32,000 bases of DNA from Desulfocapsa sulfexigens DSM 10523 (GTDB taxonomy: Bacteria; Desulfobacterota; Desulfobulbia; Desulfobulbales; Desulfocapsaceae), in assembly GCF_000341395.1 (NCBI RefSeq), contig NC_020304.1:900001-932000 (forward strand). Reading direction: 5' to 3'. The position numbers and the translations under genes were made by a program. The notes under the pieces are model-generated. The model saw nothing but the letters and a program-made list of their open reading frames with translations. It did no database searches and was not told the DNA's origin. Every line of letters starts with the position of its first letter. The first letter of the stretch is position 1. This document shows, one piece after another, positions 4,911 through 32,000 of this stretch.

Positions 4911-4926
4911 TTTACAATAACTTTAC
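4911..4926 (-). promoter_or_regulatory. Second GTAAA direct repeat (N6 spacing), about 155-170 nt upstream of the EF-hand gene
   Basis: The plus strand reads TTTAC-AATAAC-TTTAC, so the minus strand reads GTAAA-GTTATT-GTAAA pointing toward the gene. The spacing is one nt longer than the consensus. Confidence 0.3.
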
Positions 4927-5189
4927 AAACCGAAGGTGATAAAGAATATTAGAGTACGAATGCCTTTTAGAAATGTCCATACTGTTGCCCTGTAGAAGGT
5001 CAGAGCATAACCACAAAGAAAAGGTGCTGAATAGAAGAATTTGTCGAATTCAAAAGCGGAAAAGGCTGTTCTCAACAACTTCGCACTGGCAACGTGTTCC
5101 CCGGTAAAGGCATCAAAACCTACCTGGCCATCGATTCAACATCAGCCTGTACCAAGGAGTCCATCCCAGATCTGGGGATTTTCAGACAC

Positions 5190-8451: not shown

Positions 8452-9653
8452 TCAGCCTTGCGGGACGCGACATCATGCATGCCTGGGGCAAATTCGTTTT
8501 TACCGGTGTCGGCCTTGGGCTGCTTATCGGCGTGACACTGTCCATGGCTGGGATTTATCGAGGCATGGTGGATGATGCCAAGGTGCTTCTTGACAACAGT
8601 GGCGCTGATCTCTGGGTTGTTCAACAAGACACCCTCGGTCCCTATGCTGAACCGTCAAGCATCTACGATGACGCCTGGCGCTCCATTCGTGGCATGCCTG
8701 GCGTTGTAAGGACTGCCAATGTTACCTATCTTACCATGCAGGTTAAGCAAGGCGAACGAGATGTACGAACCATGGTTACCGGCATCACTCCCGGAGAGCC
8801 CGGTACCCCCGGATGGCCCCCATATCTCGTCGCCGGTCGCCAGATCACCCGTGGCCATTACGAGGCCGTGGCGGATATCGCCTCCGGATTTAAGCTTGGC
8901 GATAAGCTCCAGATCCGCCGCAACTACTACACTGTGGTTGGCTTGACCAGGAGAATGGTCTCTTCTAATGGTGATCCAATGGTATTCATCCCACTCAAGG
9001 ATGCTCAGGAGGCCCAATTTCTCAAGGACAATGACGCCATCCACCAGCAACGGCGTCGCACCACTGCCAACCCGGCATTCAATCAACCGAACGTTCCAGG
9101 TTTACTCGATGCGATCATCGCCACCCAAAGCATCAATCCTTACGTTAATGCAGTACTGGTGCAGCTTGAAACGGGCCACAACCCTGATATTGTGGCAGAA
9201 TCGATCCGCCGTTGGAAACGCTTGACAGTCTACACGCGCAGCCAGATGGAGGAAATACTCGTTGGTAAACTCATTGCCACTGCGGCAAAACAGATATTCA
9301 TGTTTCTGGTTATTCTTTCGGTTGTCAGCTCAGCTATTGTTGCTTTCATTATCTACACTCTGACCCTTGGCAAGATACGCGAAATTGCCGTGCTGAAATT
9401 AATCGGCACTAAAAACCGGACCATTGTCGCTTTGATTATGCAACAGTCTGTTGCTCTAGGCATGATTGGTTTTGTCGTAGGAAAAATCACAGCCACTTTA
9501 CTGATGGCACCGTTTTTTCCTAAATATGTCCTTTTGGAGCCCCTCGACTCGGTCGTCGGTTTTGCCGCCGTAGTGCTGATATGCATTCTGTCGAGCGTTA
9601 TCGCCATTCGTGCTGCTCTCAAGGTCGATCCGGCTGAGGCCATTGGGGGTTGA
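8448..9653 (+). CDS. ABC transporter permease, FtsX/MacB-type with a large periplasmic domain
   Basis: TM1, then an approximately 240-aa periplasmic domain, then three C-terminal TMs carrying the FtsX signature region (REIAVLKLIGTKNRTIVALIMQQSVALGMIGFVVG). Confidence 0.9.
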   Translation: MISLAGRDIMHAWGKFVFTGVGLGLLIGVTLSMAGIYRGMVDDAKVLLDNSGADLWVVQQDTLGPYAEPSSIYDDAWRSIRGMPGVVRTANVTYLTMQVKQGERDVRTMVTGITPGEPGTPGWPPYLVAGRQITRGHYEAVADIASGFKLGDKLQIRRNYYTVVGLTRRMVSSNGDPMVFIPLKDAQEAQFLKDNDAIHQQRRRTTANPAFNQPNVPGLLDAIIATQSINPYVNAVLVQLETGHNPDIVAESIRRWKRLTVYTRSQMEEILVGKLIATAAKQIFMFLVILSVVSSAIVAFIIYTLTLGKIREIAVLKLIGTKNRTIVALIMQQSVALGMIGFVVGKITATLLMAPFFPKYVLLEPLDSVVGFAAVVLICILSSVIAIRAALKVDPAEAIGG

Positions 9654-9654
9654 T

Positions 9655-10362
9655 ATGGGTTATAAAGGTATTCAAATCGAAGGATTAAAAAAACGTTATG
9701 GCAACGGAGAAACCGCCGTAGATGCCCTTAAAAAGGTAGATATGCATGTGGCCCCAGGTGAAGTGGTCGGTCTGATCGGACCGTCAGGATCAGGCAAAAG
9801 TACGTTGCTGAAATCCCTCGGAGCGGTGATCGAACCCACTGCCGGGCGAATGATTCTTGGAGATGAGGTCATTTATGACGATGGCTGGAAAGTGAAGGAT
9901 TTGCGCGCCCTGCGCCGCGATAAAATTGGTTTTGTCTTCCAGGCTCCGTATCTCATTCCTTTCCTCGATGTAACCGACAACATCGCATTGCTCCCCATGC
10001 TTGCAGGTGTGCCAAATGGTGAAGCACGTGAGCGGGCAATAGAGTTACTAAAAGCCCTTGATGTGGAACATCGTGCCAAGGCCATGCCATCCCAACTCTC
10101 GGGAGGTGAGCAGCAGAGGGTAGCCATTGCCCGGGGCTTGATTAACCGCCCACCGGTAATTCTAGCCGACGAGCCTACGGCACCTCTCGACAGCGAACGG
10201 GCACTGGCTGTCATTCGTATTTTAAACGATATGGCTCACCAGTACGAAACGGCTATCATCATAGTCACCCATGATGAAAAAATCATCCCGACCTTCAAAC
10301 GCATCTATCATATCCGTGATGGCGTAACCTACGAGGAAGCCGGAGAAGGTCGCGATTTTTAG
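9655..10362 (+). CDS. ABC transporter ATP-binding protein (MacB/LolD-like, separate polypeptide)
   Basis: Walker A is GPSGSGKST, the signature is LSGGEQQR, Walker B is ILADEPT, and the H-loop is VTHD. ATG 9655 lies 1 nt after the permease stop. Confidence 0.95.
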
Positions 10363-10395
10363 TGAAAGCAGAGCAAGAGAGGCTCACAACTACCA

Positions 10396-10860
10396 ATGAA
10401 ATACAAACAAGCTATCAAAACAATCGGTGCTGTCAGTACGATTGGGACATCGTTGCTGCTCGCTGGCATTATGGCTTTGGCTGATACCAACACGAAGGCA
10501 GGGCCGCTCACTCTTGTAAAGATCATGCAAGACCAGGGCATGTATATGGAGAAAATTACCGCAGGTATTATTCGTGAAGATTGGCAACAGGTGTCAGAAA
10601 GTGCACTGCGGATTGCCGGCCATCCTCAGCCGCCGCTGACCGAGAAGATCCGTATCCTTGGTTTTGTCGGTTCGGATGTCAACACGTATAAGAACTACGA
10701 CAAGAAAACCAGCCAGGCAGGTCAGGAACTCAGTCAAGCAGCTGAGCGCCAGGATGGAATACTGGTGGTTTCTGCCTTTGCAACTTTGCAAACCAGTTGC
10801 CTTTCCTGTCATCAGCATTTTCGCATACCGTTTCAGGAGTATTTTTATGAGCATCGTTAA
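10396..10860 (+). CDS. Class II cytochrome c (cytochrome c'-like), periplasmic
   Basis: Signal peptide, mostly helical sequence, and a single CLSCHQHFR heme motif 15 residues from the C-terminus (the pattern C-x-x-C-H-x-x-[FY]-R is typical of cytochrome c'). Confidence 0.75.
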   Translation: MKYKQAIKTIGAVSTIGTSLLLAGIMALADTNTKAGPLTLVKIMQDQGMYMEKITAGIIREDWQQVSESALRIAGHPQPPLTEKIRILGFVGSDVNTYKNYDKKTSQAGQELSQAAERQDGILVVSAFATLQTSCLSCHQHFRIPFQEYFYEHR

Positions 10861-12280
10861 AACAATAACTGGCCACATCTTCACTGCATCTATCATTGCC
10901 GGCCTGCTGGCTGCTTGTTCGATTGGCCCGGATTTCAAGCGCCCCCAATCTCCTAAGGTGGAGAATTACACCCCCACTCCAATAAACCTTGGAGGATCAC
11001 AGCGTATCAGCGAGGACGGCCTGGTCAATCAACAATGGTGGCATGAGCTCGGCTCAGCAAAGCTAAACGCCCTGATCGATGAAGCCTTGCAAGCTAACCC
11101 CACACTGATTGGTTATCAGGCTACGCTACGCCAGGCCGATGAACTGTATGCTGCCCAGGCTGGCTCGAGCCTGTATCCCCAGCTTGGTGCCAACGTAGGT
11201 GGCCAGCGGCTGCGCTCTAATCCCGGCATTTTATCAGGGCAGAGTGGTGATACCCAGGAATTCAGTATTTACAACACCAGTGTCGGCGTTCAGTACACCT
11301 TCGACCTGGTCGGCGGTAACCGACGCGCCTTGGAGTCCCTGGCCGCCAAGGTTGATTATCAACGCTTCCAACTTGAAGGAGCCAGACTGACGCTAACAAC
11401 TCATATTGTTACAACCGCTGTCACTCAGGCCAAGCTTGCTGGTCAAATCCAGGCCACAGAGGCCATCCTTCAGTCCCAGGAAGAACAGATGGAGCTGACC
11501 AGAGAGCGTGTACGTCTTGGCCAGGCCGATCGAGATGATGTCCTGGCCTTGCAAGTCCAGGTAGAACAGACCCGTGCCAGTATTCCACCCTTGCGGAATC
11601 AACTTCAGCAAAACGAGCACCTGCTTGCTGTACTCACCGGTCGGGCTCCAGGGAACGGAGAAGGACCATCCTTCTCCCTTCACGAATTCACTCTGCCGGC
11701 TGATCTGCCCCTAACCGTCCCCTCCGTACTGGTTCGCACCCGCCCCGACATTCTGGCTGCCGAAGCCCTGCTGCATGCGGCCAATGCAGAATACGGTGTG
11801 GCTATTGCCCAGCTTTACCCCCAACTCACCCTCAGCGCCAATCTTGGTTCACAGGCCTTAACCACCAGTGCGTTGTTTGGCAGCAACTCAGCTATTTGGA
11901 GTCTGGTCGGACAGCTGACGCAACCCCTGTTTAATCCGGGATTACCAGCACAAAAACGGGCAGCCCTGGCTGCATTCGATGCAGCGGCGGCCAGTTACCA
12001 AAATGTAGTGCTCGAATCGTTACGTAATGTGGCTGATGTGCTGCGTGCCTTGGATAACGATACTCAAAGGTTGACTTCCCTTTCCGCTGTCGATGTGGCA
12101 ACGCAGGAATCGTTGGAATCCATCCGGCGACAATATGCCCTTGGAGCCGTGAGCTATGTCGGTCTACTCATTGCACAACAGCAGGCACAACAGGTACGAG
12201 TAGCTCTGGTCGAGGCGCAGGCACAACGCCTTATCGATAGTGCCGCCTTCTATCAAGCCATGGGTGGAAATGAAGGATGA
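10847..12280 (+). CDS. Efflux outer-membrane factor lipoprotein (NodT/OprM family)
   Basis: CAGGAG RBS lies before ATG 10847. Lipobox is LLAAC. FKRP, RPDILAAEALL and two repeated TolC-like halves are present. The track start at 10658 runs through the cytochrome gene and is rejected. Confidence 0.9.
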   Translation: MSIVKTITGHIFTASIIAGLLAACSIGPDFKRPQSPKVENYTPTPINLGGSQRISEDGLVNQQWWHELGSAKLNALIDEALQANPTLIGYQATLRQADELYAAQAGSSLYPQLGANVGGQRLRSNPGILSGQSGDTQEFSIYNTSVGVQYTFDLVGGNRRALESLAAKVDYQRFQLEGARLTLTTHIVTTAVTQAKLAGQIQATEAILQSQEEQMELTRERVRLGQADRDDVLALQVQVEQTRASIPPLRNQLQQNEHLLAVLTGRAPGNGEGPSFSLHEFTLPADLPLTVPSVLVRTRPDILAAEALLHAANAEYGVAIAQLYPQLTLSANLGSQALTTSALFGSNSAIWSLVGQLTQPLFNPGLPAQKRAALAAFDAAAASYQNVVLESLRNVADVLRALDNDTQRLTSLSAVDVATQESLESIRRQYALGAVSYVGLLIAQQQAQQVRVALVEAQAQRLIDSAAFYQAMGGNEG

Positions 12281-12722: not shown

Positions 12723-12808
12723 TGGTGCCGAAGGCGAGAATCGAACTCGCACGACCGTGGGCCACTGCCCCCTCAAGACAGCGTGTCTACCAGTTCCACC
12801 ACTTCGGC
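12723..12808 (-). tRNA. tRNA-Leu (anticodon GAG), 86 nt with a long variable arm and encoded CCA
   Basis: The reverse complement is GCCGAAGTGGTGGAACTGGTAGACACGCTGTCTTGAGGGGGCAGTGGCCCACGGTCGTGCGAGTTCGATTCTCGCCTTCGGCACCA. The acceptor stem is GCCGAAG/CTTCGGC and the anticodon stem is CTGTC/GGCAG with loop TTGAGGG. It is very similar to E. coli leuU, which also follows secG. Confidence 0.95.
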
Positions 12809-15650: not shown

Positions 15651-16868
15651 CTACAGCATCTTATCAGCGACGGTTACCGTCAGATCGCCCAGTGTATTGG
15701 TATAACTTCCAAGTTCGTTATCATACCAGGCATAAACTACGGCCTGGGTGATGGGAACATTAAGGATATGATTAGCCCCAGCATCAATTTGGCAGCTCTT
15801 CAGTTTCTGAAGGTTCACTGGAATAGACGCTGTCCGGGTATGCGTCTCCGTTCCTTCAATTACGGCAGCAGCCTCGGGGACACCTATGATATCCGAAGAG
15901 ACATTCTGGTCCTCGGAAAATTCAAGATACTTGCTGTTTTCAGCATATTCACGGTAAATGGAATTGATCCGCTCCCGCTTCAACGGGCTGTCAAGATCGT
16001 CCTGAAAATTCATCACCAGGACAATAAGTGACCCGGTGGAGGTGGGAACCCGCACAGATTCTGCAATAAACCCAATGGATTGCATCTCTGGGATAACCAG
16101 AGCCAGAGCCTTGGCTGCTCCCGTGGTGGTCAGAATAATGTTATTAAGAATTGAACGATTTTTCCTGAGATCTGCAGCACCGGACTTTGGCAGAGTATCA
16201 AGAACCTTCTGACTGCCTGTTGCCGCATGAACCGTCACCATGGAAGCACTCAGGAAATTTTCTGCGCCAATGGATTCCATCAGTGGTTTTATCATGTAGG
16301 AAAGACAGGTGGTGGTACAGGATGCGGCAGAGATAAGTGCGTGCCTGGATGGGTCATAATCCTCATCATTTATTCCCATAACTGCCGTTACAGCATCCGC
16401 TGGCATATCAATGCCCTTAGATTTAATTTTAAATGGAGCCGACAGCATAACCTTCTCAGCTCCTGCCTGCAGATGGCCACGTAAGGCCCCCCACCCCGCA
16501 TCCGCATCAGCTGTGGGATCAGTGAACGCCCCGGTGGTATCCACCACCAGCTTCACATTATTTTCCTGCCAGGCTATATCTTTAGGATTTCTGGCAGTAC
16601 GAAGAAATTTCACCGGCACACCATTAATAACCATGGTTCCAGCCTCTTCATTCAGCTCTTCGATCACCCTGCCGCCCCTGTGGCCATGCAGATAGGTGCC
16701 AAGGCGTCCAAATGATGAATCCCGCTCTACCGAAGCTGCAAGGTCATTCAATCCCTGACCGATTTCACGGCCAACGTTAACCACCAGTCCTGAAAAATGT
16801 TTCCTTGAGACGTGGTGCCAGAGGGAGAGTTTTCCAATTCGACCCATGCCGTTTAAACCTAATTTCAT
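15651..16868 (-). CDS. gap: Glyceraldehyde-3-phosphate dehydrogenase, atypical long form (405 aa)
   Basis: GMGRIG Rossmann motif, catalytic SAASCTTTCL (canonical SNASCTTNCL), TVHAATG and TTTGAAKAL. It is about 70 aa longer than canonical GAPDH (about 335 aa). Confidence 0.85.
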   Translation of the reverse strand: MKLGLNGMGRIGKLSLWHHVSRKHFSGLVVNVGREIGQGLNDLAASVERDSSFGRLGTYLHGHRGGRVIEELNEEAGTMVINGVPVKFLRTARNPKDIAWQENNVKLVVDTTGAFTDPTADADAGWGALRGHLQAGAEKVMLSAPFKIKSKGIDMPADAVTAVMGINDEDYDPSRHALISAASCTTTCLSYMIKPLMESIGAENFLSASMVTVHAATGSQKVLDTLPKSGAADLRKNRSILNNIILTTTGAAKALALVIPEMQSIGFIAESVRVPTSTGSLIVLVMNFQDDLDSPLKRERINSIYREYAENSKYLEFSEDQNVSSDIIGVPEAAAVIEGTETHTRTASIPVNLQKLKSCQIDAGANHILNVPITQAVVYAWYDNELGSYTNTLGDLTVTVADKML

Positions 16869-19819: not shown

Positions 19820-20788
19820 TTATCCTCTCCCTCCTTCCCGTCCCATCACCAGATATAATAACGCCATCCGTACGGCCACACCGTTAGTCACCTGTTCCAG
19901 GATCACAGACCCCTTTCCGTCAGCGACGTCCGGATTCATCTCCACACCACGATTAATAGGGCCGGGGTGCATAACCAGCACATCGGGGCGAGCATGTTTT
20001 TGAAGCAGATTATGGTTAATGCCATAAAACTGGGAATACTCACGAAGCGAAGGAATCAAGGGATCATCCTGACGTTCCCGCTGAATACGAAGAGCCATTA
20101 CAACATCGGCATCTGTCACTGCCTCGACAATGGAGCCACAAACTCTTGCGCCAAGTGCATCAAGTCCAGGAACCATAAACGTCTCAGGGCCTGCAACTCT
20201 TACTTCTGCACCAAGCTTTGTAAAACCGAGAATATCAGAATGAGCGACTCTGCTGTGGGCTATGTCCCCGACAATGGCAATTTTCAGTCCTTCTACGGTT
20301 CCCCTGTGTTCACGAACTGTCATCATATCAAGAAGTGCCTGACTGGGGTGTTCATGAGTTCCGTCTCCAGCATTAATAATTGAAGCCTCTACATGACGGG
20401 CAAGAAGACCAGGTGCACCGGAGCTACCATGCCTGACGATTATAGTATCAGGATTCATGGCCTGGAGATTACGGGCCGTATCAATCAGCGTTTCACCTTT
20501 AGTGGCAGAACTGGTGGATGCAGCAATATTAAAGGTATCTGCACTCATACGTTTCGCCGCTATCTCAAAGGAGAGTCGTGTCCTGGTGGAAGGTTCAAAG
20601 AAAAAATTAATAATAGTCTTTCCCTTCAGGGTGGGAACTTTTTTGATGGAACGGCTGGATATCTCTTTAAAGGAAATCGCTGTATCCAGAATATGAAAGA
20701 TATCGGCAACAGATAGCTGTTCTATTCCAAGGATATGTTTATGCTTGAACTGATAGGCGTCTTTCACGTTTTTTGTACTCACCCTCAA
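19820..20788 (-). CDS. pyrB: Aspartate carbamoyltransferase catalytic subunit
   Basis: [15 protein letters not shown] and HPGP motifs. The start codon is uncertain: either TTG at 20788 overlapping the lepB stop, or GTG at 20782. Confidence 0.93.
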
Positions 20789-21432
20789 TAGACAATGTTA
20801 CCAATCCGCCCCCAGCGAATGGAAGTAAAACGATCAACTGACATAAGCGGCTCATCAAGATCCCAGGACCAGTATAAAATAAAAGCCTTTCCAAGGACAT
20901 CCTTTAACGGAACAAAGCCCCAGAACCTACTGTCATAGCTGTTATCACGATTATCCCCCATAACAAACAGGGTACCTTCGGGAACTTTTACCGGCCCCAT
21001 ATTATCTCGAGGCCCTGTACCTGCGGCCATAACAGTGCTTTCGGTGAAATGGGCGTGGGGATTAGTAATAGGTTCTCCATTCAAAAAGAGTTGTTTGTCT
21101 TTCACTTCAACAATATCACCGGCAATGCCGACAACCCTTTTTATATAATCAATAGAGCGATCTTTTGGAAAGCGAAAGACCACGACATCGTCACGTTCAG
21201 GACTTTTCCAGGGAATAAGCACGTTTCCCGTCATGGGGATCTTAACCCCATAGATAAATTTATTTACCAATAAATGGTCACCAATCTGAAGAGTTGGCAA
21301 CATGGAACCGGAAGGAATCTTAAAAGCCTGGACAATAAAGCTCCGAATAAAGAGAGCAAGTATAATAGCTATGATAATCGCTTCAACGTACTCGCGAACA
21401 ACTGATTTTTGGGGCTTTTGACTACTCAGCAC
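20785..21432 (-). CDS. lepB: Signal peptidase I
   Basis: SGSMLPTL (catalytic Ser), YIKRVVG (catalytic Lys) and [14 protein letters not shown] motifs. GTG 21432 is preferred because a GGGAG RBS sits 6 nt upstream. The track start at 21477 is also GTG but has no RBS. Confidence 0.9.
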
Positions 21433-21714
21433 TGGAAACTCCCATAAAGAGACATTAAAATAACCTGACAACCACACAATGAAACAAAACTACTCGAAAG
21501 TAAGACCAATTTCAAGACACCCTACAAAGAGTTGTCACATATAAAATAAAATCAATACCTTCAGCCAGCGCACCTCAGGAGACTACACCACATAGTGAGC
21601 CACGCCTAGGCAGAATACCTATATATAGTACAAAATGACACAATCAATGGTCTTCCCATTATTTAACTACCTGTTTTAGCAACAAGAAAATATCGGCTTT
21701 TATATCACCACTCC

Positions 21715-21830: not shown

Positions 21831-22889
21831 ATGAATCTGCCTTTCTTTTCCAGTGAAGACCTTGTTGTCGGTATTGATATCGGCTCCCATGCAATAAAGG
21901 TCTGCCAGCTTAAACGAACCGACAAGGCTTACGCCGTGGTTAATCTGGGTAGCGCAACACTCCCGGAAGGGGCAGTCGATGATGGTACCCTGAACGATTC
22001 TGAAATTGTCGGTAAAACAATAGCCGAACTATTTAAAAGTTTAAAAATAAAGAAGAAAAAAATTGGTTTCTCCATCTCAGGCTATTCAGTTATAGTAAAA
22101 AAGGTTAACCTTGCGGTTATGTCAGAAGAACAACTGGAAGAGCATATTCAGTCTGAAGCAGAACAATATATTCCCTTTGATATTGATGACGTTTACCTTG
22201 ATTTCCAGGATCTTAAAACCAACAGGGAAGATAGTGACAGGACCGATGTCATGCTGGTGGCTGCTAAAAAAGAAATTGTTGATGACTACCTGGAAATGTT
22301 CGAGGATCTGGACCTCAGACCTGTGATCGTTGACGTCGATGGTTTCGCACTGGAAAACACATACGAATACAACTACCCGAAGGATGAAAATGTTGCACTG
22401 GTAGACATTGGCGCGTCCAAGATGAACATCAACATTATCTCCAATGGTATTTCCGTTGTTGCCCGAGACATCGTTGTTGGCAGCCACCAATTGACAGAAC
22501 AGATCCAGGCAGCTTTTGATCTTGAGTTCGAGGAGGCTGAAGCCCTGAAACTTGGCCACATCCCGGCAGAAGAAAAACAGGAAGAGATTGCAGATATCTT
22601 TTCAACGACTTGTACCCAATGGGTGCTTGAAATTAAGAAAGCAATTGATCTTTACCATGCAAACCATTCGGACTCACCTCTAACACGTCTGGTTCTGAGT
22701 GGCGGTGGCTCAAAAGTTTCGGGTCTTATTGATTTTCTTTCCAATGAGACTGGTATATCAGTGGAACTGTTTAACCCTTTTGGTAATATGACCGTCAATG
22801 AGAATAAAATTGATCCGGATTATCTGAAAAACATTGGCCCGGAAATGGCAATTGCAACAGGGATTGCCATCCGTCCATCAGTTATATAG
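21831..22889 (+). CDS. pilM: Type IV pilus assembly protein PilM (actin-like ATPase fold)
   Basis: VGIDIGSHAIKV phosphate-1 motif, VDIGASKMNI and LSGGGS. The length of 352 aa is typical. Confidence 0.9.
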   Translation: MNLPFFSSEDLVVGIDIGSHAIKVCQLKRTDKAYAVVNLGSATLPEGAVDDGTLNDSEIVGKTIAELFKSLKIKKKKIGFSISGYSVIVKKVNLAVMSEEQLEEHIQSEAEQYIPFDIDDVYLDFQDLKTNREDSDRTDVMLVAAKKEIVDDYLEMFEDLDLRPVIVDVDGFALENTYEYNYPKDENVALVDIGASKMNINIISNGISVVARDIVVGSHQLTEQIQAAFDLEFEEAEALKLGHIPAEEKQEEIADIFSTTCTQWVLEIKKAIDLYHANHSDSPLTRLVLSGGGSKVSGLIDFLSNETGISVELFNPFGNMTVNENKIDPDYLKNIGPEMAIATGIAIRPSVI

Positions 22890-22898
22890 GCTGAAATT

Positions 22899-23471
22899 AT
22901 GCTAAGAATTAACCTCCTTCCCATACGTCAGCTGAAAAAACGCGCCAAGGCGCGTAATCAGATAATAAGTTTCCTCACCCTGCTTATTTTTCTCTTTCTT
23001 ATTTTAGGGACTGTCAGTTTTTTACAAAGCACTCAAATAAAAAACATTGAATCATCGATTGCAGAACTGAAGAGAGAGAAGCAACAGTATGCTCCTATTC
23101 TTGCAGAGATGAAAAAACTTGAGCAGACTAAAAAAGATCTTGAAAACAAAATAGGCATTATTAAAAAGCTCAGAAGAGACTCAGCCATAACGGTCCATAT
23201 CCTGGATGAAGTGGCAAAAAAAGTCGATTCCAAACGAATGTGGCTCAAATCGTTAAAGCAGCAGGGAGCTAATCTGTCCTTAACGGGAGTGGCACTGGAC
23301 AACCAAACTATTGCCCAATTCATGGATGCCCTGAAAGACTCTCCATACATCAGTGAGGTAAATCTTTCAAACGCATCTCTGGCAAAAGTTTCTGGTCGGG
23401 ATTTAAAAAGCTTTTCACTGGCTTGTGACATCGTCAGTCCGCCAGAAGAAAGTCAGAAAAAAGCTAACTAG
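22899..23471 (+). CDS. pilN: Type IV pilus assembly protein PilN
   Basis: The N-terminus MLRINLLP is conserved in PilN. It has a single TM, a coiled coil and a ferredoxin-like C-terminus. Confidence 0.85.
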   Translation: MLRINLLPIRQLKKRAKARNQIISFLTLLIFLFLILGTVSFLQSTQIKNIESSIAELKREKQQYAPILAEMKKLEQTKKDLENKIGIIKKLRRDSAITVHILDEVAKKVDSKRMWLKSLKQQGANLSLTGVALDNQTIAQFMDALKDSPYISEVNLSNASLAKVSGRDLKSFSLACDIVSPPEESQKKAN

Positions 23472-23495
23472 AACTCAGAATAAACACTGCGGTAT

Positions 23496-24134
23496 ATGAA
23501 AAAGACTAACGCATTCGCGACCTTTATAGACGAGAAATACATCCCGCTTGACAAAAAGCTGAAAATTGCTTTGGCGGTTATTCTCTTTTTACTTCCAGTG
23601 GTTCTCTTTTATTTTTTGTGGCTTCAACCACACTACAAAAACCATGCCCGTCTGACACAGCAGAAGGCTGCAATGACTCAAGAACTCCAGAAAGCGAAGG
23701 CAAAAGCTGCAAACAAGGGCAAATTGCAAGCTGAACTCGATGCCACCGAGGAACTTTTTGCAGAAACTGCAACACTGCTTCCAAAAGAAAAGGAAATCCC
23801 AAGTCTTTTGACAAATATTTCAGCTTTGGGCCGCGGATCTGGACTGGACTTTCTCACCTTCAAACCAAATGCTGATATCCCCAGAGATTTCTATTCTGAG
23901 ATTCCAGTTGACATCAAGGTTCGTGGTCCTTACCACAATATGGGAATTTTCCTGAATCAGGTGAGCAAGCTGGATCGAATAGTGACAGTGGCAAACATTA
24001 ACATGGGGGGTCCTAAAAAAGAGGGCTCAGAAATGCTTCTCAATTCAAGTTGCCGCCTGGTTACTTACCAATTTACCAATGTACAGATCAGCAAACAAGA
24101 AGACCCGAAGAAAAAGCGCAAAAAACGCAGATAA
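23496..24134 (+). CDS. pilO: Type IV pilus assembly protein PilO
   Basis: Single TM, coiled coil, LLP.E.EIPSLL and the I.V.G.YH....F motif. It has a poly-Lys/Arg tail. Confidence 0.85.
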   Translation: MKKTNAFATFIDEKYIPLDKKLKIALAVILFLLPVVLFYFLWLQPHYKNHARLTQQKAAMTQELQKAKAKAANKGKLQAELDATEELFAETATLLPKEKEIPSLLTNISALGRGSGLDFLTFKPNADIPRDFYSEIPVDIKVRGPYHNMGIFLNQVSKLDRIVTVANINMGGPKKEGSEMLLNSSCRLVTYQFTNVQISKQEDPKKKRKKRR

Positions 24135-24148
24135 CAGACTGTCAGCCT

Positions 24149-24682
24149 ATGAAAACATCATTCTTAAACACAAGGCCACATTTAGCCAAATCATTAACAT
24201 TTTTATTATTGGGAACAATGCCCATCAGTTCAACGGCACTTGCACTTCCTGTTTCTTCACCCCAGGAAAATCCAACCCAACTGACCTTAGCCTCACCCGG
24301 ACAATCGCCGGAAGCATTTTTTGAATACCGCATTGAAAATAGACCCGATCCTTTCCAGCCTTTTATCTCAGAAAAAGCCACATCAGCAAATATTAATGAA
24401 ATTCTACCGGTTGACGAACAATTATCAGGTATGCAATTGTTTGAGCCAGGACAGTTAAATCTTGTCGCAATAGTCATGACAGGGGATAACGATTTTGCGA
24501 TGGCTGAAGATACAACAGGAAAGGGATATATTCTCCGTACAGGAATGAAAATTGGAAAGCGCGGAATCGTCACCGCCATTCAAACCAACGAAGTCAAGAT
24601 TGAAGAAACTGCTTTTACCAGAGCTGGCAAAAAACTAACAAGCAAAATTGTGATGCTCCTCAAGAAAGAGGGAGAAGAATAA
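24149..24682 (+). CDS. pilP: PilP-like periplasmic protein
   Basis: Signal peptide (..SSTALA/LP), the RPDPFQPF motif, and a C-terminal beta-domain (L.LVAIV..G....A...D..GKGYILR.G.KIGK.G.V..I). It has no lipobox. ATG 24149 is preferred over the track start at 24050, which overlaps pilO. Confidence 0.75.
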   Translation: MKTSFLNTRPHLAKSLTFLLLGTMPISSTALALPVSSPQENPTQLTLASPGQSPEAFFEYRIENRPDPFQPFISEKATSANINEILPVDEQLSGMQLFEPGQLNLVAIVMTGDNDFAMAEDTTGKGYILRTGMKIGKRGIVTAIQTNEVKIEETAFTRAGKKLTSKIVMLLKKEGEE

Positions 24683-24685
24683 ACA

Positions 24686-26611
24686 ATGCATACAAAACTT
24701 TCCACGTACTATTTGGCCATTTGCTGTTCACTTTTCCTTCTCCTGACACATTCCGTTCAGGCAGCAGAAACGGGTGTTTACTCAATTCAGAACATTGAAG
24801 CAGATGTACAGGACAACAGCCTGCTCATGGTGCTGAAAGGTGACAGTCCTCCTGCATACACCATGTATGAACTTTTTTCTCCTGCCCGGCTGGTTGTAGA
24901 TATTGCCGATGCTAATTTGAATGAATCTATAGACCTGGCTGAAATTATCCCGGCAAATGATTTCACCACCATAACAATCACTACCCTCAAGGATAAAAGT
25001 CCATCTATTACCCGCTTTGAAATGACCCTTGCGGACAGTCACACCTATAAAGTTGAGCGGGTAGAAAATGACCTTACAATTCGTCTTTTTCCACAGGATA
25101 CAACTGGTACAACAGAACTCAAAGCTGACAAAAATATTGATGCAACTGCCCCCCCCGCACTTCACGACATTGTTGTACGAAAAGATGACAACCAGACCGA
25201 GATCCTCTTTCAGGCAGACCAGGCAATTGAGGATTATAGAGAAGATACCGTAACAGGGCGTGACGGCCTTCCTGATTCCATGTATATCGATATCAACAAT
25301 GTAAATGGTTCCGAATTAATACGTGAAAAAAACATAGGAACAAGCCTTTCTAAAATTCGTGTTGCAACCAGGGGTTCCGGAGTTCGAGTGGTATTTGATG
25401 CAGCCCCTGAAGGACTATTTTCCTATGACATCAAAACAGTTCCACAGGGTTTACTGGTAACCATTAACGAAAAAGGACAACAACAGAATGCTCCAGAGTC
25501 AGTTCCGGCTCCCGAAGAACTCAAAGATAACTCAATAAGTGCTGAAGCGATTACTTCAGATCCAACCCTTGATGCGCTTATAGATTCCTCGGAAGCCGCC
25601 TTGACGCAGAAATCACTAATATCTGAAGAAAATGTGACGGCCGCCGAGGCTATGCAGGATTCATTTGAATTCTCAGGCTACAAGGCAACTCGTATCAGTG
25701 TTGATTTTTACAAAATAGACCTCCATAATGTCTTCAGACTTTTTCGTCAGATCAGTGGTATCAACCTTATCGTCGATGAATCCGTAAACGGTTCTTTAAC
25801 CCTTGCCCTCAATGATGTCCCATGGGATTTTGCTCTCGACATTATATTGAACTTAAAAGATCTAAAAAAAGAAGAACGGCATAATACTGTTGTTATTTAT
25901 CCAGCAAAAAAAGAGTTCGCATGGCCAGAACGTGCGTCTGACAACCTCTCCTTTGAGGCGGACGCTGAAGTCATAGAACAGGAAGCTCTGATCATCCAGC
26001 AGTCAACTAACCAACCCGCAGAAATTATGCAGGCAAAGGAATTACTTCGCAGGGCAAAAATTGAGGAACAAAATAACGACCTCGAAGACGCAGTCAGGTT
26101 ATATGAGCAAGCATTTGCCCTATGGCCCGAAAATGCGAAAATTTCTAACCGACTTGCCGCTCTATACCTTGTTGATCTCAAAATATATGCCAAAGCTATT
26201 CATTTTGCCAAGGAAACACTCAAGATCAATAAAAACGATTATCAGGCAGCGTTGTATGGTGCTATTGCCTCAGCCAACATGGATCAGGTTTCAGAAGCAA
26301 TGGAATATTTCGCACAAAGCATAAGCGGCACCCCACCAATGAAGGAAGCACTTATCAGTTACGCTGCTTTCAGTGAAAAGAAAGAACAACCTGAAGCGGC
26401 ACTGAAACTTCTTAACAAGTACGCAGAAAATTACAGCGATACAGTTGAAACCATGATTTCAAGGGCCAGACTCTATGACACCATGGGACAAACACAAAAA
26501 GCAACAGAGCAGTACAAGTCGTTGTTGTATTCTGGTTATCAGCTGGTTCCAGGGTTGAAGAAATATATCCGCGGCCGATTAGCCATGAAAGACAATCAGA
26601 TTGTTCAATAA
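24686..26611 (+). CDS. Secreted AMIN-AMIN-(secretin N0-like)-TPR protein; carries no secretin barrel
   Basis: The signal peptide is ..THSVQA/AETG. Two AMIN-like repeats cover about aa 30-135 and 157-265 (..PARLVVDIADANL.. and ..SMYIDINNVNG..). The N0-like block FSGYKATRISVDFYKIDLHNVFRLFRQISGINLIVDESVNGSLTLALNDVPWDFALDIILN covers about nt 25664-25912. TPR-like helices cover about nt 26020-26560 (..AVRLYEQAFALWPENAKISNRLAALYL..). Confidence 0.8.
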   Translation: MHTKLSTYYLAICCSLFLLLTHSVQAAETGVYSIQNIEADVQDNSLLMVLKGDSPPAYTMYELFSPARLVVDIADANLNESIDLAEIIPANDFTTITITTLKDKSPSITRFEMTLADSHTYKVERVENDLTIRLFPQDTTGTTELKADKNIDATAPPALHDIVVRKDDNQTEILFQADQAIEDYREDTVTGRDGLPDSMYIDINNVNGSELIREKNIGTSLSKIRVATRGSGVRVVFDAAPEGLFSYDIKTVPQGLLVTINEKGQQQNAPESVPAPEELKDNSISAEAITSDPTLDALIDSSEAALTQKSLISEENVTAAEAMQDSFEFSGYKATRISVDFYKIDLHNVFRLFRQISGINLIVDESVNGSLTLALNDVPWDFALDIILNLKDLKKEERHNTVVIYPAKKEFAWPERASDNLSFEADAEVIEQEALIIQQSTNQPAEIMQAKELLRRAKIEEQNNDLEDAVRLYEQAFALWPENAKISNRLAALYLVDLKIYAKAIHFAKETLKINKNDYQAALYGAIASANMDQVSEAMEYFAQSISGTPPMKEALISYAAFSEKKEQPEAALKLLNKYAENYSDTVETMISRARLYDTMGQTQKATEQYKSLLYSGYQLVPGLKKYIRGRLAMKDNQIVQ

Positions 26612-26670
26612 TTCAGAATTCTATAGAAATGAGACCAAAACTTTCTTTTTCAATGCCCAAGGGGTTTTCC

Positions 26671-28443
26671 ATGAAGCTTCAAACATCAATGCTGCAGTTA
26701 AGCTGCCTTCTTCTTCTTTCCTTCTCCGTTGCCTCCTGCATACCTGACAAGGGCGAACCTGAAGTAGACCTTCCGGAGGCACCTCCAGTCCCGGTCGAGA
26801 CGGTTGAAGAACAAACTCAACTCCCTGTACAGTATCAGGCACCTTCCTATATGGTTGACACCTCAAGCAGTGAAAGCATCGATGAAGTTGCTGATGATGT
26901 CATAATTAAAGTTGGGGCCTCTATTCGTTCCACCCAAGGTCCTCAACCGCTCTGGGATATTCTGAAGCGGCTTGCTGCCTTGAAAAAGATGAGCGTTTCG
27001 TGGGCAAGTGATGTTGACCAGAATGTGCTTGTTGATGTTGATATAAGCGCTGATGACGATTTCTACAGTGCTATTGACAACCTTCTGCGTCAGGTGGATT
27101 ATTACCATGAAATGAATGGTTCGACCATTGTGGTCCATTATAAAGAGACGAGACAATTCCACATTGCAATGCCCTTTACTAAACAGCTCTACGAAACTGC
27201 AACGGGTGGCAATGTCCTTGGCAGTAACGATGCTGCAAGTAATATTGAAGGAACTATTCGTTTGGATTCCAAGGGGAATGAATTCGATATCTGGAAAAAC
27301 ATTGAAGATAACATGAATGCTATCCTTGACACCTGGTCGACATCTGCAGTTACCTCGGTTCCGGAGAGCACTCCTGCAGAAAATGAGGACACAGCTGATA
27401 CTACCCCAAGCAAGGCAACCAAGCAGGTTTCTGCTTCTGGTAACAAATACACCATAGACAAACCTGTTGGTCTGATTACTGTCCATGCACCACGACCACT
27501 TCTGGATAAGCTTGAACTCTATTTTAAGAATCTTAAGAGAGAATTATATAAACAGGTTTCCATCGAAGCTAAGGTTATTGAAGTCCAATTAACTGACTCC
27601 TCGTCTATTGGCCTCAACTGGAACATGCTATTAAAAAATCTCACGGTTGGTGCTAGTTACAGTGGTGCCAAAACCCGTTCGGATTCAGACAGTAATACCA
27701 ATACCGCTTCAAGCGATTGGGGGAGGGATTATAATGACACTACCAACAGAGACACCGATATTGACGGGCTAACCACATCCACCCGTGCGGTAACTGATAC
27801 CATAACATCAGTTGGATCGTTGGCAGCTTCCACAACAGATACCATTACCCACCTCATTACTGAAGGAGGTGGAGCCGCCATATCACTTGCCGCATTTACC
27901 ATGGATACCTTCCTGAATGCCGTTAAAGAGCAGGGACAAACGACCATACTCTCAAACCCAAAACTCAGTGTCTTGAATGGGCAGCCTGCACTTATTACCG
28001 TGGGAAGAAATGTCACATACATAGACAGCATTGAATCTGATGTCAACAATGACACCGGAACGGTTTCCTACACCGTAGAGACCGAACGGGTTCTATCTGG
28101 AGTCGGCCTTGCACTGACCGCAAACATCCTCGAAGATAATGAAATCATTCTCAACTTGGTTCCAGTCACCTCCGAACTTGAAGAACCCATTGAATACAGA
28201 GATGTTGGTCTTGGCCAGGTTGGATTGCCGATCATTAATGTCAGGGAAATGAGTACAACAGTCCGGGTCAGAGATGGGGAAATGCTGGTTATTGGTGGGC
28301 TAATTTCAAATGTTGAAGACAATGGCGGAACATTTGTACCAGGAACCAGCAATATTCCATTTTTCAAATACTTCTTTGGCTACGAAGAAAAAATAAGCAG
28401 AAAAAGAGAGCTTATAATCTTACTTAGACCACGAATTATATAA
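26671..28443 (+). CDS. Secretin-family outer-membrane channel, lipoprotein type (MshL/PilQ-like)
   Basis: Its own RBS (AAGGGG) and a signal peptide with lipobox VASC. An N0-like domain is present (PLWDILKRLAALKKMSVSWASDV...). The secretin core is VSIEAKVIEVQL..SIGLNW ... ILSNPKLSVLNGQPALITVG ... GLPIINVREMSTTVRVRDGEMLVIGGLI ... IPFFKYFFG....R.ELIILLRPRII. Confidence 0.9.
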   Translation: MKLQTSMLQLSCLLLLSFSVASCIPDKGEPEVDLPEAPPVPVETVEEQTQLPVQYQAPSYMVDTSSSESIDEVADDVIIKVGASIRSTQGPQPLWDILKRLAALKKMSVSWASDVDQNVLVDVDISADDDFYSAIDNLLRQVDYYHEMNGSTIVVHYKETRQFHIAMPFTKQLYETATGGNVLGSNDAASNIEGTIRLDSKGNEFDIWKNIEDNMNAILDTWSTSAVTSVPESTPAENEDTADTTPSKATKQVSASGNKYTIDKPVGLITVHAPRPLLDKLELYFKNLKRELYKQVSIEAKVIEVQLTDSSSIGLNWNMLLKNLTVGASYSGAKTRSDSDSNTNTASSDWGRDYNDTTNRDTDIDGLTTSTRAVTDTITSVGSLAASTTDTITHLITEGGGAAISLAAFTMDTFLNAVKEQGQTTILSNPKLSVLNGQPALITVGRNVTYIDSIESDVNNDTGTVSYTVETERVLSGVGLALTANILEDNEIILNLVPVTSELEEPIEYRDVGLGQVGLPIINVREMSTTVRVRDGEMLVIGGLISNVEDNGGTFVPGTSNIPFFKYFFGYEEKISRKRELIILLRPRII

Positions 28444-28499
28444 AAAATTTCAATCAACTTTAATACCACGATTCAATAAGAATTTTCAGGGAGAAAATT

Positions 28500-29489
28500 A
28501 TGCAGAAGTTAAAATACATACTTTATCTGCTCTCAGCCGTACTCGTTATGGGTTGCGGCAATACGGTTGTGGAGACCCTCTATGTTGCGGATCCTCCAAA
28601 TCCCAATGCTCCTGGTAAAGGACAGACTATTGTCATCCTTCCTTTCGCCGACTATACCAGTGCTGACTCCATCGCAGGTGCATACAGAAGGAACCTGGCA
28701 GTCACTGAGGCAATAACGGACAGACTAGTTGCCAACGGCTTTAGCCTTGCTATCCAGGAAGACGTATTCGGATATCTTGTCGCTGAAGAAATCGTCAGCG
28801 TCATTCCATATGATGAAAACAGAACAGCCAGTTTATCCGAAGAACTGAACAATGAATGGTCGGAATTGATGAAAAGTCACTTAAGGACGTATATTCAAGA
28901 CCAGAAAATGCGTTCAGGTGAAACTGTTTCAGGAAGCCCAGGGACCCATGCCCTTGACCAGAAAGCCGTTGCGAAAATAGGCCGTCAATTTAATGCCGAT
29001 TACATTGTTCGTGGGCGACTCCTTGAGTTTAAAACCCGAGAAGAGAATACGTGGATACCATGGAAAAAAGGTCTGCTTCCATTTACTTTGGGGTTAAGTA
29101 GCCAGACACTGAATGGTTTTGCTCGTTCTGACACATATGATGACTGGGGGCATATGCTTCTTCCAGGAACCCTGGGTGCCATCACAGGGTATAATGCCGA
29201 CACACTCGGATTTGACAATAACGTTGGTGGTGGTGTGGTGTGGGGAGCTGTTGGTGCAGGTGCTGGACACATGGCAAAAAATGGCGGCCAGGTTGATCAG
29301 GCCGTAGTTCAGATGCGTATTTGGGTACAGGAGGCAGCCACTGGAAATCTTGTCTGGACAAACAGAGTTGATGTCAAGGTATCACCTGAATCCGTATATG
29401 CCGATCGTCAATATGATATGCTCTTTGACAAAGCAATACATAAAGGTGTCAACACCCTTATTGATAACTTTGTTCAGTATGGATTATAA
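28500..29489 (+). CDS. Lipoprotein with a CsgG/HfaB- or LpoB-like domain and a glycine-zipper insert
   Basis: AGGGAG RBS and lipobox VMGC. By eye, IVILPFADYT.., ..ADYIVRGRLLEF.., ..DQAVVQMRIWVQEAATGNLVW.. and ..AIHKGVNTLIDNF align with CsgG blocks (VSVYNIQDETG; IMVEGSIIGYE; DQIAVNLRVVNVSTGEIL; AIETGVIFLIND). It also has GGGVVWGAVGAGAGHMAKNGG at nt 29226-29288. Confidence 0.7.
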   Translation: MQKLKYILYLLSAVLVMGCGNTVVETLYVADPPNPNAPGKGQTIVILPFADYTSADSIAGAYRRNLAVTEAITDRLVANGFSLAIQEDVFGYLVAEEIVSVIPYDENRTASLSEELNNEWSELMKSHLRTYIQDQKMRSGETVSGSPGTHALDQKAVAKIGRQFNADYIVRGRLLEFKTREENTWIPWKKGLLPFTLGLSSQTLNGFARSDTYDDWGHMLLPGTLGAITGYNADTLGFDNNVGGGVVWGAVGAGAGHMAKNGGQVDQAVVQMRIWVQEAATGNLVWTNRVDVKVSPESVYADRQYDMLFDKAIHKGVNTLIDNFVQYGL

Positions 29490-29513: not shown

Positions 29514-29560
29514 AAAAAAAGGCTCTTAATGCAAACTGCATTAAGAGCCTTTTTTCTTTT
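29514..29560. terminator. Bidirectional rho-independent terminator shared by the pil operon (+) and secB (-)
   Basis: A 13-bp perfect stem, GGCTCTTAATGCA (29521-29533) with TGCATTAAGAGCC (29537-29549), and a 3-nt loop. It is flanked by A7 upstream and TTTTTTCTTTT downstream. Confidence 0.85.
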
Positions 29561-29632: not shown

Positions 29633-30115
29633 TTAGTTTTTGGCAGCAGCAGCTTCCTGCTTGGAATTTTGATATAAAGCCATAAAGTTAATCGGTTCCA
29701 TAAGGAAGGGTATAAAACCACCATCAACTGATATCTGGCTGACTATCTGCCTGGTAAAGGGGAAAAGAAGCGTTGGACAATCAACGCCCAGTACCATTTC
29801 CAGATGTTCTGCAGGAATATTCCTCATTAGAAATGCGGCTGCATGTTCAATTTCCATAATAAACATGGTCTTGTTGTTATTTCCACTATCAAGAATTTTA
29901 GCAGTAATCTGTAATGCAACCTCGTAGTGATTATCATCCAGTTTTTTATTGTTCAGTTTTAAATTAACTTCAACCTTTGGTTCCTGATTCTGTGCCTGAA
30001 AAACACCGGGAGCATTGGGATTTTCAAAAGAGAAATCTTTGATATACATCTTCTGCATGCGAAAAACAGGATTGGTATCTTCTGCAGCATTATTGTTTGC
30101 ATTTTCCTCTGTCAT
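29633..30115 (-). CDS. secB: Protein-export chaperone SecB
   Basis: FRMQKMYIKDFSFENPNAP matches the SecB N-terminal signature. The protein is 160 aa with ..LFPF.RQ...... downstream. Confidence 0.9.
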   Translation of the reverse strand: MTEENANNNAAEDTNPVFRMQKMYIKDFSFENPNAPGVFQAQNQEPKVEVNLKLNNKKLDDNHYEVALQITAKILDSGNNNKTMFIMEIEHAAAFLMRNIPAEHLEMVLGVDCPTLLFPFTRQIVSQISVDGGFIPFLMEPINFMALYQNSKQEAAAAKN

Positions 30116-30251
30116 GTTTACCTACCTCAATAGACGGTTACTAAATATTCAATCAATGGTTACCCAACAATAAGGGCACCTTACAAAAATCTTCCTTATT
30201 AAACAGTAAAATTGGTCGTTAGGCAAAGGAATTCCAAATTTTATCAAGAAG

Positions 30252-32000
30252 CTAACGTTTAAGCACATCACCGAGATAGTAACCTGTGAATGACCCTTTG
30301 GATTGTACTATTTTTTCAGGGGTTCCAGTCGCCACAATATTGCCACCATTATCACCTCCTTCAGGCCCAACATCTATCACCCAATCCGCTGTTTTTATAA
30401 CGTCAAGGTTATGCTCTATAACTACAACCGTATTTCCATTATCAACCAGTCGCCCCAGAACGCATAACAAGTGTTCAATATCAGCAGGATGCAGTCCAGT
30501 TGTCGGTTCATCCAGAATGTAGAGCGTTTTACCACTGGCTCTGCCGGAAAGCTCTTTCGCCAACTTTACCCGTTGAGCTTCCCCGCCTGAAAGTGTCACC
30601 GAGGACTGACCAAGGCTGATATAGGTGAGACCAACATCATAAAGAGTCTGTAATCTGTTCTTTACAGGAGGAATATTTTTGAAAAATTCCAGAGCCTCTT
30701 CAACGGTCATCGAGAGGACTTCATGGATATTTTTGCCACGATATTTAATTTCCAATGTTTCCTGGTTATAGCGTTTTCCCTGACACGCCTCACACACCAC
30801 ATATATATCGGGTAAAAAATGCATGGCAATCTTATTCACACCTTCACCCTCACAGGCCTCACAGCGTCCACCTTTAACATTGAAACTGAACTGGCCCAGC
30901 TTATATCCCCGGACTCTGGACTCCGGTAGACGTGCGAATAGTTCACGAACAGGTGTAAAAACACCGGTATATGTAGCTGGATTGGAGCGGGGTGTTCTGC
31001 CAATGGGACTTTGGTCAATATCAACTATCTTATCAATCTTATCCAGGCCGCTAAGAGTGGTCTTCCCTATCCTGGCACAATCGAGTCTTCGCCCCACTCC
31101 CTCTTTTGCAAGAGGAAAAAGTGTTTCAATCACAAGTGAACTCTTTCCAGATCCTGATACTCCAGTAATGCAGGTCATTACTCCGAGGGGAAAGGAGACA
31201 TCAATATTTTTGAGATTATTAACAACACCATGCTTCAAACGAAGAAATTGCCTTTTGGCGGCTTTACGCCTTTTTTCAGGAACCGCAATATTCCTGCTTC
31301 CACAAAGATAATTCCCGGTCAACGATGTATCACATTTCAACAGGCCTTGGACATCACCAGCATAGACGACCTCCCCACCGTGCACCCCTGCTCCAGGGCC
31401 CATATCAAGTATGAAATCAGCAGTCATAATCGTGTCGGTATCATGTTCCACCACTATGACACTGTTCCCCATATCCCTTAATTCAATTAGAGTATTAATC
31501 AATTTCTGATTATCACGCTGATGAAGGCCAATACTAGGTTCGTCTAAAATATAGAGTACCCCGGCCAGTCTTGATCCTATCTGAGAGGCCAGTCTGATAC
31601 GCTGGGCCTCACCCCCGGAAAGGGTGCCTGATTTCCTTTCAAGGGACAAATAGCCTAGCCCCACATCTTCAAGAAACGATAACCTGTCAACAATCTCTTT
31701 CAAAATGGGTTCTGCTATCTGACGTTCACGACTAGAAAAGGGAATAAGAGGGAGATATTCGATCATCTGTTCAATGGATAGACAGGTGAGATCATAGATT
31801 GACCATTTACCCGCTTTCACAGACAGCGCCTCCGGCTTTAAACGCTCACCATGGCACTGTGGACACGTTTGTTCATTCATGAAACGGCCAAGTTCCTCTC
31901 TGATCATAGGAGAATTGGTCTCATGAAATCTTCTGTTCAGTTGCGGTATAACCCCCTCATACGGCTTCACTGTGGTCATCTTTCGGTGTCCTTTCTGATA
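30252..32000 (-). CDS. uvrA: Excinuclease ABC subunit A, C-terminal ~580 codons (gene continues past the right edge)
   Basis: Walker A is GVSGSGKSS. There are two LSGGEAQR signatures and the zinc module C..C...CEACEGEG...CEACQGKRY. The frame stays open upstream of the track's Met at 31979 (..YQKGHRKM..), so that Met is internal. Confidence 0.97.

Follow-up and report, generated by a model that had tools for sequence, protein, structure and literature searches.

A Desulfobulbales pilMNOP cluster that encodes a barrel-less AMIN-N0-TPR protein, a separate MshL-type secretin and a second predicted lipoprotein, and no single PilQ

In the type IVa pilus machines studied so far, one PilQ polypeptide takes care of peptidoglycan targeting through its AMIN domains, coupling to PilP through its N0 domain, the periplasmic rings and the pore. 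PilM is the cytoplasmic actin-like component of the type IVa alignment complex, and in characterised machines PilP is an inner-membrane lipoprotein. Binding of PilP to the PilQ N0 domain and of the AMIN domains to septal peptidoglycan has been described for such machines (PMC10191384, PMC10653833, PMC5285504). The genes of type IVa systems usually occupy a number of separate loci, those for mannose-sensitive haemagglutinin (MSHA) pili almost always form a single locus with mshE, mshG, mshM and mshA, and co-option of secretins is common among type IV filament systems (PMC6668835). Here we analyze a pilMNOP cluster of Desulfocapsa sulfexigens DSM 10523 that lies in a stretch of 32 kb, referred to as the window, and that continues after pilP with three further genes, numbered 5 to 7. 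These encode a barrel-less AMIN-N0-TPR protein, a predicted MshL-type lipoprotein secretin and a second predicted lipoprotein. With moderate confidence we assign the seven genes to a lineage-specific machine for a type IVa pilus, or for a closely related type IV filament, of which they would encode the part that spans the envelope. This variant would be fixed in the order Desulfobulbales.

ORF (open reading frame) calling yields seven plus-strand genes with short gaps, followed by a strong bidirectional terminator. The gaps of 9, 24, 14, 3, 59 and 56 nt that a previous sequence-only reading of this DNA had reported for seven co-directional genes were reproduced, and they require pilP to start at 24149 and gene 6 at 26671. 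The single strong terminator claimed in that reading at 29514-29560 is indeed present as an intrinsic hairpin at 29515-29555, with a 19-pair stem, a 3-nt loop, an A-run before and a T-run after. With runs on both sides of the stem it is predicted to act on both strands; it is located between gene 7 (plus) and the convergent secB (minus) and is common to both. No comparable plus-strand terminator occurs within the seven-gene cluster, the only strong one being that after gene 7, and Shine-Dalgarno-like (SD-like) sequences are found upstream of genes 5, 6 and 7. The spacing and the single terminator suggest that genes 1 to 7 are co-transcribed. With whole genes involved and conservation across many genomes, coincidence need not be considered.

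The first four genes, in the order M-N-O-P, encode the proteins of the alignment complex. PilM (352 aa; 21831-22889, plus strand) matches PF11104 with 2.4e-77 and scores 256.8 bits on TIGR01175, compared with a cutoff of 133; its identity across 80 Desulfobulbales loci is 61-93%. PilN (190 aa; 22899-23471, plus; PF05137, 5.2e-20, 71.7 bits vs cutoff 22.8) and PilO (212 aa; 23496-24134, plus; PF04350, 2.1e-41, 141.9 bits vs cutoff 22) lie above their curated cutoffs as well. The fourth protein (177 aa; 24149-24682, plus) scores 25.3 bits on PF04351, for which the gathering cutoff is 25.6. At the level of the family, PF04351 (PilP) is matched in 13 of 13 sequences, i.e. the window protein and 12 relatives, with a best value of 5e-10. 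The family profile finds Myxococcus xanthus PilP (3jc8_Pa, 3.4e-13) as best solved structure over nearly its whole length. As a family-level call from sequence, the prediction that the fourth gene is PilP, with an HR-type β-sandwich, is secure. The window PilP carries a type I signal peptide (ALA/LP) and contains no cysteine, and is thus not a lipoprotein. Type I (AxA) signal peptides without a lipobox cysteine are shared by the 12 relatives (L001, L008, L014, L025, L027, L035, L045, L049, L058, L064, L076 and L078). In this clade PilP may be soluble, or tethered via PilN and PilO alone.

Gene 5 (24686-26611, plus strand), preceded by an SD-like GAGGGAGA, encodes a secreted protein of 641 aa with a type I signal peptide (VQA/AE), an AMIN-AMIN-N0(STN)-TPR architecture and no secretin barrel. 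PF11741 matches in two stretches (1.4e-9), the better of which is the first AMIN domain at aa 42-125 (24809-25060). The second, at about aa 158-258 (25157-25459), reaches 21.3 bits when scanned alone, with a cutoff of 20.5. Some close relatives of about 510-540 aa (P0104, L046, L053, L055 and L066) are missing the second AMIN domain; AMIN copy number is variable within the family. The N0/STN domain at aa 335-438 (25688-25999) corresponds to positions 2-105 of the PilQ model TIGR02515 (6e-18) and, scanned alone with the STN model, scores 31.5 bits vs a cutoff of 28.4. Using the family profile, the best solved match of this domain is M. xanthus PilQ residues 458-554 (2.9e-27), followed by the N0 domains of Pseudomonas, Neisseria and Vibrio PilQ. 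The TPR domain at aa 450-615 (26033-26530) is recognized by TPR_14 (4.5e-9), TPR_19 (7.9e-8) and other TPR models, and its matches among solved structures are generic TPR proteins only. It reaches 23.8 bits on the PilW/PilF pilotin model TIGR02521, where 154 are needed for membership. The 120 homologues listed have the same architecture at about 510-660 aa, and the secretin domain PF00263 is absent from gene 5 and from all of them. N0/STN is the most conserved part of the protein, and N0, linker and TPR are close to invariant, with aligned sequences 53-78% identical to the query. Judged by these domain matches, gene 5 has retained the N-terminal half of PilQ and joined it to a TPR domain.

Neither gene 5 nor gene 6 qualifies as PilQ under TIGR02515, which covers N0, N1 and barrel and asks for at least 284 bits: gene 5 scores 65 bits, over positions 2-105 only, and gene 6 scores 110. 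The claim that no single pilQ follows pilP thus holds, PF00263 lying in the separate gene 6 and gene 5 being a barrel-less AMIN-AMIN-N0-TPR protein.

Gene 6 (26671-28443, plus strand; 590 aa from Met15) carries the C-terminal secretin domain PF00263 (1.9e-35). The mechanical ORF begins at 26629, a longer form that is also found in certain database entries (604 aa); Met15 at 26671 is favored because of an SD-like AAGGGG and because many homologues start there. Of the secretin models, MshL TIGR02519 gives 247.3 bits, 3 bits under its cutoff of 250.2 and far above GspD (128.5) and PilQ (110.2). Relatives of gene 6 carry the name MshL at NCBI and JGI. The lipobox VASC, with a Cys37 that is invariant in 21 sequences, predicts a lipoprotein, in agreement with the prediction of Shewanella MshL as an outer-membrane lipoprotein (PMC3223724). 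The initial description of gene 6 as a lipoprotein secretin of MshL flavor is supported. By sequence, the protein also matches solved secretins, and the fold matches of its low-confidence structure model are secretins of various kinds, headed by the type IVb liposecretin BfpB. A conserved N-terminal periplasmic domain at aa ~90-180 (26896-27168) gives weak matches to PF10671 TcpQ, which are sub-threshold in 16 of 21 members (best 0.0024) and reach 4e-4 with the domain alone. It may be N0/TcpQ-like. Compared profile to profile, the gene 6 N-terminus and the gene 5 N0 are not significantly similar (E 0.13). Inside the secretin region lies a low-complexity insert rich in Ser, Thr, Asn and Asp (aa ~338-420; 27640-27888), modeled at a pLDDT (predicted local distance difference test) below 50. 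Relatives differ widely in the length of this insert, and P0319, P0344 and P0346 have a short one or none.

Gene 7 (28500-29489, plus strand) encodes a predicted lipoprotein of 329 aa with the lipobox VMGC and an invariant Cys19, and it belongs to no Pfam family. All 837 close homologues are named 'hypothetical', and the family is small, since a profile search of 1.84 billion representatives yields only 210 clusters. Scanning the window protein and 22 relatives returned weak matches to LpoB in 23 of 23 (best 3.6e-5), to FlgT_M in 15 and to CsgG in three. The window protein itself is not an LpoB by these models (18.3 bits vs 22.3 for PF13036, 17.2 vs 110.6 for TIGR02722) and does not match CsgG PF03783. 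No match to solved structures was obtained by sequence. Foldseek searches with the structure model, which has a pLDDT of 59 and is of low confidence, recovered CsgG (4e-5), FlgT (7e-5) and TraT (9e-5), and further GNA1162, PelC, LpoB and LptE. Template modeling scores from the same model were 0.35-0.46 for CsgG and 0.29-0.40 for TraT, the latter without a Pfam match. The matched proteins are outer-membrane lipoproteins of one fold class, several of them ring-forming. The modeled fold suggests that gene 7 falls into the LpoB/CsgG/TraT/PelC fold class, and family membership is unsupported. Of the former label 'CsgG/LpoB-like' the fold class can thus be retained (Foldseek, weak LpoB matches throughout) and the family assignment dropped, all scores being below cutoffs.

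A glycine-rich hydrophobic insert in gene 7 (aa 181-264; 29040-29291) contains two Gly/Ala-rich segments, GTLGAITG and VVWGAVGAGAG, and is modeled at low confidence as two helices. The glycine-zipper family 2TM PF05433 is weakly matched in 3 of 23 members and not by the insert scanned alone. On the model, the insert is a candidate membrane-embedded hairpin. In TraT, amphipathic helices anchor the protein in the outer membrane (PMC11733297); the analogy of the gene 7 insert to this anchor is suggestive only.

To see how far the arrangement extends, one genome per species was scanned. A relative of gene 5 is encoded in 299 genomes, and the loci of the 80 best were analyzed using the seven cluster proteins together with LepB and SecB as queries. 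These 80 genomes are nearly all labeled Desulfobulbales or left at higher rank, and include the genera Desulfocapsa, Desulforhopalus, Desulfopila, Desulfoprunum, Desulfogranum, Desulfosediminicola, Desulfotalea and Desulfobulbus. Cable bacteria also belong to this order. Every sufficiently long contig among the 80 loci displays lepB (minus), pilM-N-O-P-5-6-7 (plus) and secB (minus), and the seven-gene order is kept down to 42% gene 5 identity. pilMNOP with genes 5-6-7 is an order-wide trait of the Desulfobulbales. The survey of gene 5 orthologues that had been proposed as a check therefore finds the triad conserved, with the Desulfobulbales as its clade. The genes queC, pyrC, pyrB and lepB upstream and secB and uvrA downstream are syntenic with the cluster order-wide as well (L001-L081).

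In the machine that we favor, PilM, PilN, PilO and PilP would form the usual inner-membrane and periplasmic alignment complex, and the jobs of the single PilQ polypeptide would be divided among separate proteins. The product of gene 5 would be soluble in the periplasm. By analogy with PilQ, its AMIN domains probably attach to peptidoglycan and set the position of the machine, and PilP would most likely dock on its PilQ-type N0. The TPR arm at its C-terminus would reach the outer-membrane parts, probably gene 6 or gene 7. Gene 6 would travel to the outer membrane as a self-piloting lipoprotein and form the gated pore, and its lipid anchor probably makes a separate pilotin unnecessary. Gene 7 would be a second outer-membrane lipoprotein, probably a collar or stabilizer at the pore. 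What the data show directly is the order of the genes, their domains, the type of signal peptide or lipobox and the conservation; that a type IVa pilus is the substrate of this seven-gene machine is our inference. The simplest history would be that an ancestral PilQ lost its barrel, that the AMIN-N0 part was retained and gained a TPR domain, and that an MshL-type liposecretin was co-opted. A plain fission of pilQ is ruled out, because the barrel gene is MshL-like (247.3 bits) rather than PilQ-like (110.2) while the alignment complex and the gene 5 N0 are of type IVa. The suggestion of a hybrid between the type IVa and MSHA layouts accordingly stands at the level of the secretin, with PilMNOP and the gene 5 N0 on one side and gene 6 on the other. 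Taken as a whole, the interpretation given in the sequence-only reading is partly supported.

Several points weigh against this picture. The conserved N-terminal domain of gene 6 might itself bind PilP. The structure model of gene 6 is poor (pLDDT 49.5), the N-terminal half included, and that of gene 7, at 59, is of low confidence too. The TPR domain of gene 5 fits no known pilotin family, and there is no solved pilotin among the sequence matches of the protein. Within the 32 kb window there is no pilin, PilB, PilC or PilT gene, as had been stated before, and a canonical PilQ or a second pilMNOP set may lie outside it. Finally, adjacency is weak evidence of coupling, above all for gene 7, because the lepB and secB flanks are equally syntenic.

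This last point bears on the possibility that gene 7 is a passenger, that is, a lipoprotein of the envelope that has a task of its own, perhaps the handling of peptidoglycan or surface proteins as with other LpoB/CsgG-fold proteins, and that merely shares the transcript or the neighborhood. We consider this possible although doubtful. Six distant relatives outside the Desulfobulbales were looked up (L082, L083, L086, L088, L089 and L090), several of the look-ups ending on uninformatively short contigs. Four of the six adjoin large proteins with BACON, PKD or carboxypeptidase-regulatory domains or unannotated proteins, with no secretin in view, which also counts against a role at the pore; one lies on a contig too short to judge. 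The equal synteny of the unrelated lepB and secB and the lack of a secretin-specific signature in the family point in the same direction. Against a passenger, one of the six relatives is found inside another cluster of type II secretion-like or type IV filament-like make-up, with a T2SSE ATPase bearing an MshEN domain, pilins, a GspD-type secretin and T2SSF. In addition, gene 7 comes after gene 6 in all Desulfobulbales loci that extend this far, on the same strand, with a 56-nt gap, its own SD-like sequence, no terminator before it and a strong one directly after. The proposal of a three-gene outer-membrane module stands as far as the conserved adjacency goes; gene 7 is a candidate member, and the lepB and secB flanks are just as conserved.

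A more specific version of the favored machine is a three-part gate, in which a peptidoglycan-anchored N0/TPR ring couples PilP to the MshL-type pore and gene 7 is a TraT/CsgG-like collar with a glycine-zipper anchor. In this detail the proposal is speculative and rather unlikely. If true, a gene 7 collar, placed around the secretin or next to it, would constitute a novel type of outer-membrane ring associated with secretins.

Outside the Desulfobulbales, gene 7 lipoproteins usually have as neighbor either a protein of 540-730 aa without a Pfam match, with the lipoprotein gene mostly just downstream, or BACON/PKD/carboxypeptidase-regulatory-domain proteins. In L082 (8170-10874) the pair of gene 7 relative and partner protein sits inside the type II secretion-like cluster. 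Gene 7 relative and neighbor may represent a two-gene surface module.

We find it improbable that genes 5-7, perhaps along with this pilMNOP, are part of a separate MSHA-like or type II secretion-like machine that exists beside an ordinary type IVa pilus encoded elsewhere, so that PilQ has not been replaced. The MshL-like score of gene 6 and the MshL names of its relatives would fit such a machine, as would the TPR protein MshN of MSHA systems (PMC6668835) and the lack of motor and pilin genes in the window. However, PilM clears the type IVa PilM cutoff by a wide margin, the closest matches of PilP and of the gene 5 N0 are type IVa parts of Myxococcus, and mshE, mshG, mshM and mshA are all absent from the window. 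Since type IVa genes are typically scattered, a standalone locus of pilMNOP plus secretin fits a type IVa system.

That gene 5 is a decaying, functionless PilQ remnant that lost its barrel is almost certainly wrong. All that it retains of PilQ is indeed the N-terminal half, and automatic annotation often calls it PilQ or HofQ. But the frames are intact at about 620-650 aa in more than 100 clusters listed and in 80 genomes, the last 200 aa form a proper TPR domain instead of frameshifted barrel sequence, and the nearly invariant N0 and TPR parts argue for a functional, selected protein, so that conservation effectively refutes a pseudogene.

The combination of domains in gene 5 is not new as such. 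An AMIN + STN + TPR architecture was listed in 2008, with a general prediction of outer-membrane transport by the authors and a Desulfobulbales-related genome among the organisms in the figure (PMC2572700). Gene 5 corresponds to this architecture (architecture v of de Souza et al. 2008), without a secretin domain. In the literature covered, which leaves most subscription journals aside, nothing was found on the seven-gene arrangement, on the pairing with an MshL-type liposecretin or on experiments. The novelty assumed in the sequence-only reading holds insofar as no experimentally characterized system with the same gene order was found, and is lower than implied given that the architecture was catalogued in 2008 and that the locus is order-wide and auto-annotated. 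The arrangement is an order-wide, automatically annotated feature of the Desulfobulbales and not peculiar to D. sulfexigens.

The locus offers a natural dissection of PilQ, with peptidoglycan targeting (AMIN), PilP coupling (N0), periplasmic rings and pore on separate polypeptides. Each of these jobs becomes separately testable by single-gene deletion, and structures could show which N0 binds PilP. It would also be a clean case of secretin co-option in which the ancestral N-terminal module was kept and the pore replaced. Homologues of gene 5 are publicly annotated as 'HofQ', 'PilQ' or 'AMIN domain-containing protein'; because a protein labeled PilQ or HofQ here is unable to make a pore, the secretin may be given wrongly in pathway inventories of Desulfobulbales. 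Gene 7 represents a small lipoprotein family that is as yet without a name and deserves a Pfam entry.

The remainder of the window consists of housekeeping and unrelated genes. The pilus cluster sits between housekeeping neighbors, as had been noted; these are queC, pyrC, pyrB and lepB upstream and secB and uvrA downstream (flanks at 20785-21477 and 29633-31979). Further genes encode a two-component system, an EF-hand protein, HPP/CBS proteins, a TetR, MacAB-like and OEP efflux set, secG-tpiA-pgk-gap and sfsA. At 6695-12280, a TetR regulator is followed by an HlyD-type adaptor, a MacB-like permease, an ABC ATPase and an OEP outer-membrane factor, which together look like a tripartite efflux operon. 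The true start of the OEP gene is uncertain, because a 154-aa ORF without Pfam match (10396-10860) overlaps its listed start at 10658. A small EF-hand calcium-binding protein (PF13499, 1e-9) is encoded at 4317-4841 on the minus strand and overlapped by an opposite-strand ORF of 178 aa (4416-4952). In the gap-pgk-tpiA-secG row, the protein at 15651-16868 (minus) is 405 aa long and gives weak matches to the N- and C-terminal domains of glyceraldehyde-3-phosphate dehydrogenase (GAPDH; 3e-15 and 6e-24). It is longer than usual, occurs in the same 405-aa form in L001 and may represent a divergent GAPDH class. A tRNA-Leu with the anticodon GAG lies directly downstream of secG at 12723-12808 (minus).

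A comparison of the locus with known systems reveals partial likeness to each. With CsgG, TraT, PelC and FlgT, gene 7 shares an N-terminal lipid anchor and, in its low-confidence model, an α/β domain that appears to be of the same fold class, but it has no family-level sequence match to them. To our knowledge, none of these proteins is a secretin partner. FimV and TsaP (LysM) and the TPR lipoprotein pilotins PilF/PilW/Tgl and TadD follow the same logic of anchoring or assembly by polypeptides that do not form the pore (PMC10653833, PMC10499894). Gene 5 differs from them in using AMIN instead of LysM, in not being a lipoprotein, in carrying an N0 and in failing the PilW/PilF model. The type IVb systems BfpB-BfpG and TcpC-TcpQ likewise combine a lipoprotein secretin with a separately encoded periplasmic accessory protein, and the low-confidence gene 6 model is closest in fold to BfpB (in the BfpBG complex), next to the weak TcpQ matches. 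Their protein families and alignment complex are different, and their partners are without AMIN, PilQ-type N0 and TPR. With the MSHA system of Vibrio and Shewanella (mshIJKLMN...) the locus has in common a predicted lipoprotein secretin, here one that scores highest on the MshL model, and a TPR-containing protein encoded beside it. In contrast to MSHA, the locus lacks MshM, MshE, MshG and MshA, the MshL-like gene 6 is the only MSHA-type component in the window, canonical PilMNOP take the place of MshI, MshJ and MshK as alignment proteins, and the TPR is fused to AMIN-N0 and placed before the secretin, not after. The type IVa PilMNOPQ machines of M. xanthus and Pseudomonas aeruginosa share the PilM-N-O-P order and the AMIN domains and PilQ-type N0 directly after pilP. 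Where these have a single PilQ, the Desulfobulbales have an N0-bearing gene 5 without N1 or barrel that ends in TPR, a pore in the form of a separate MshL-type lipoprotein, an extra lipoprotein gene after it and a PilP that is not a lipoprotein.

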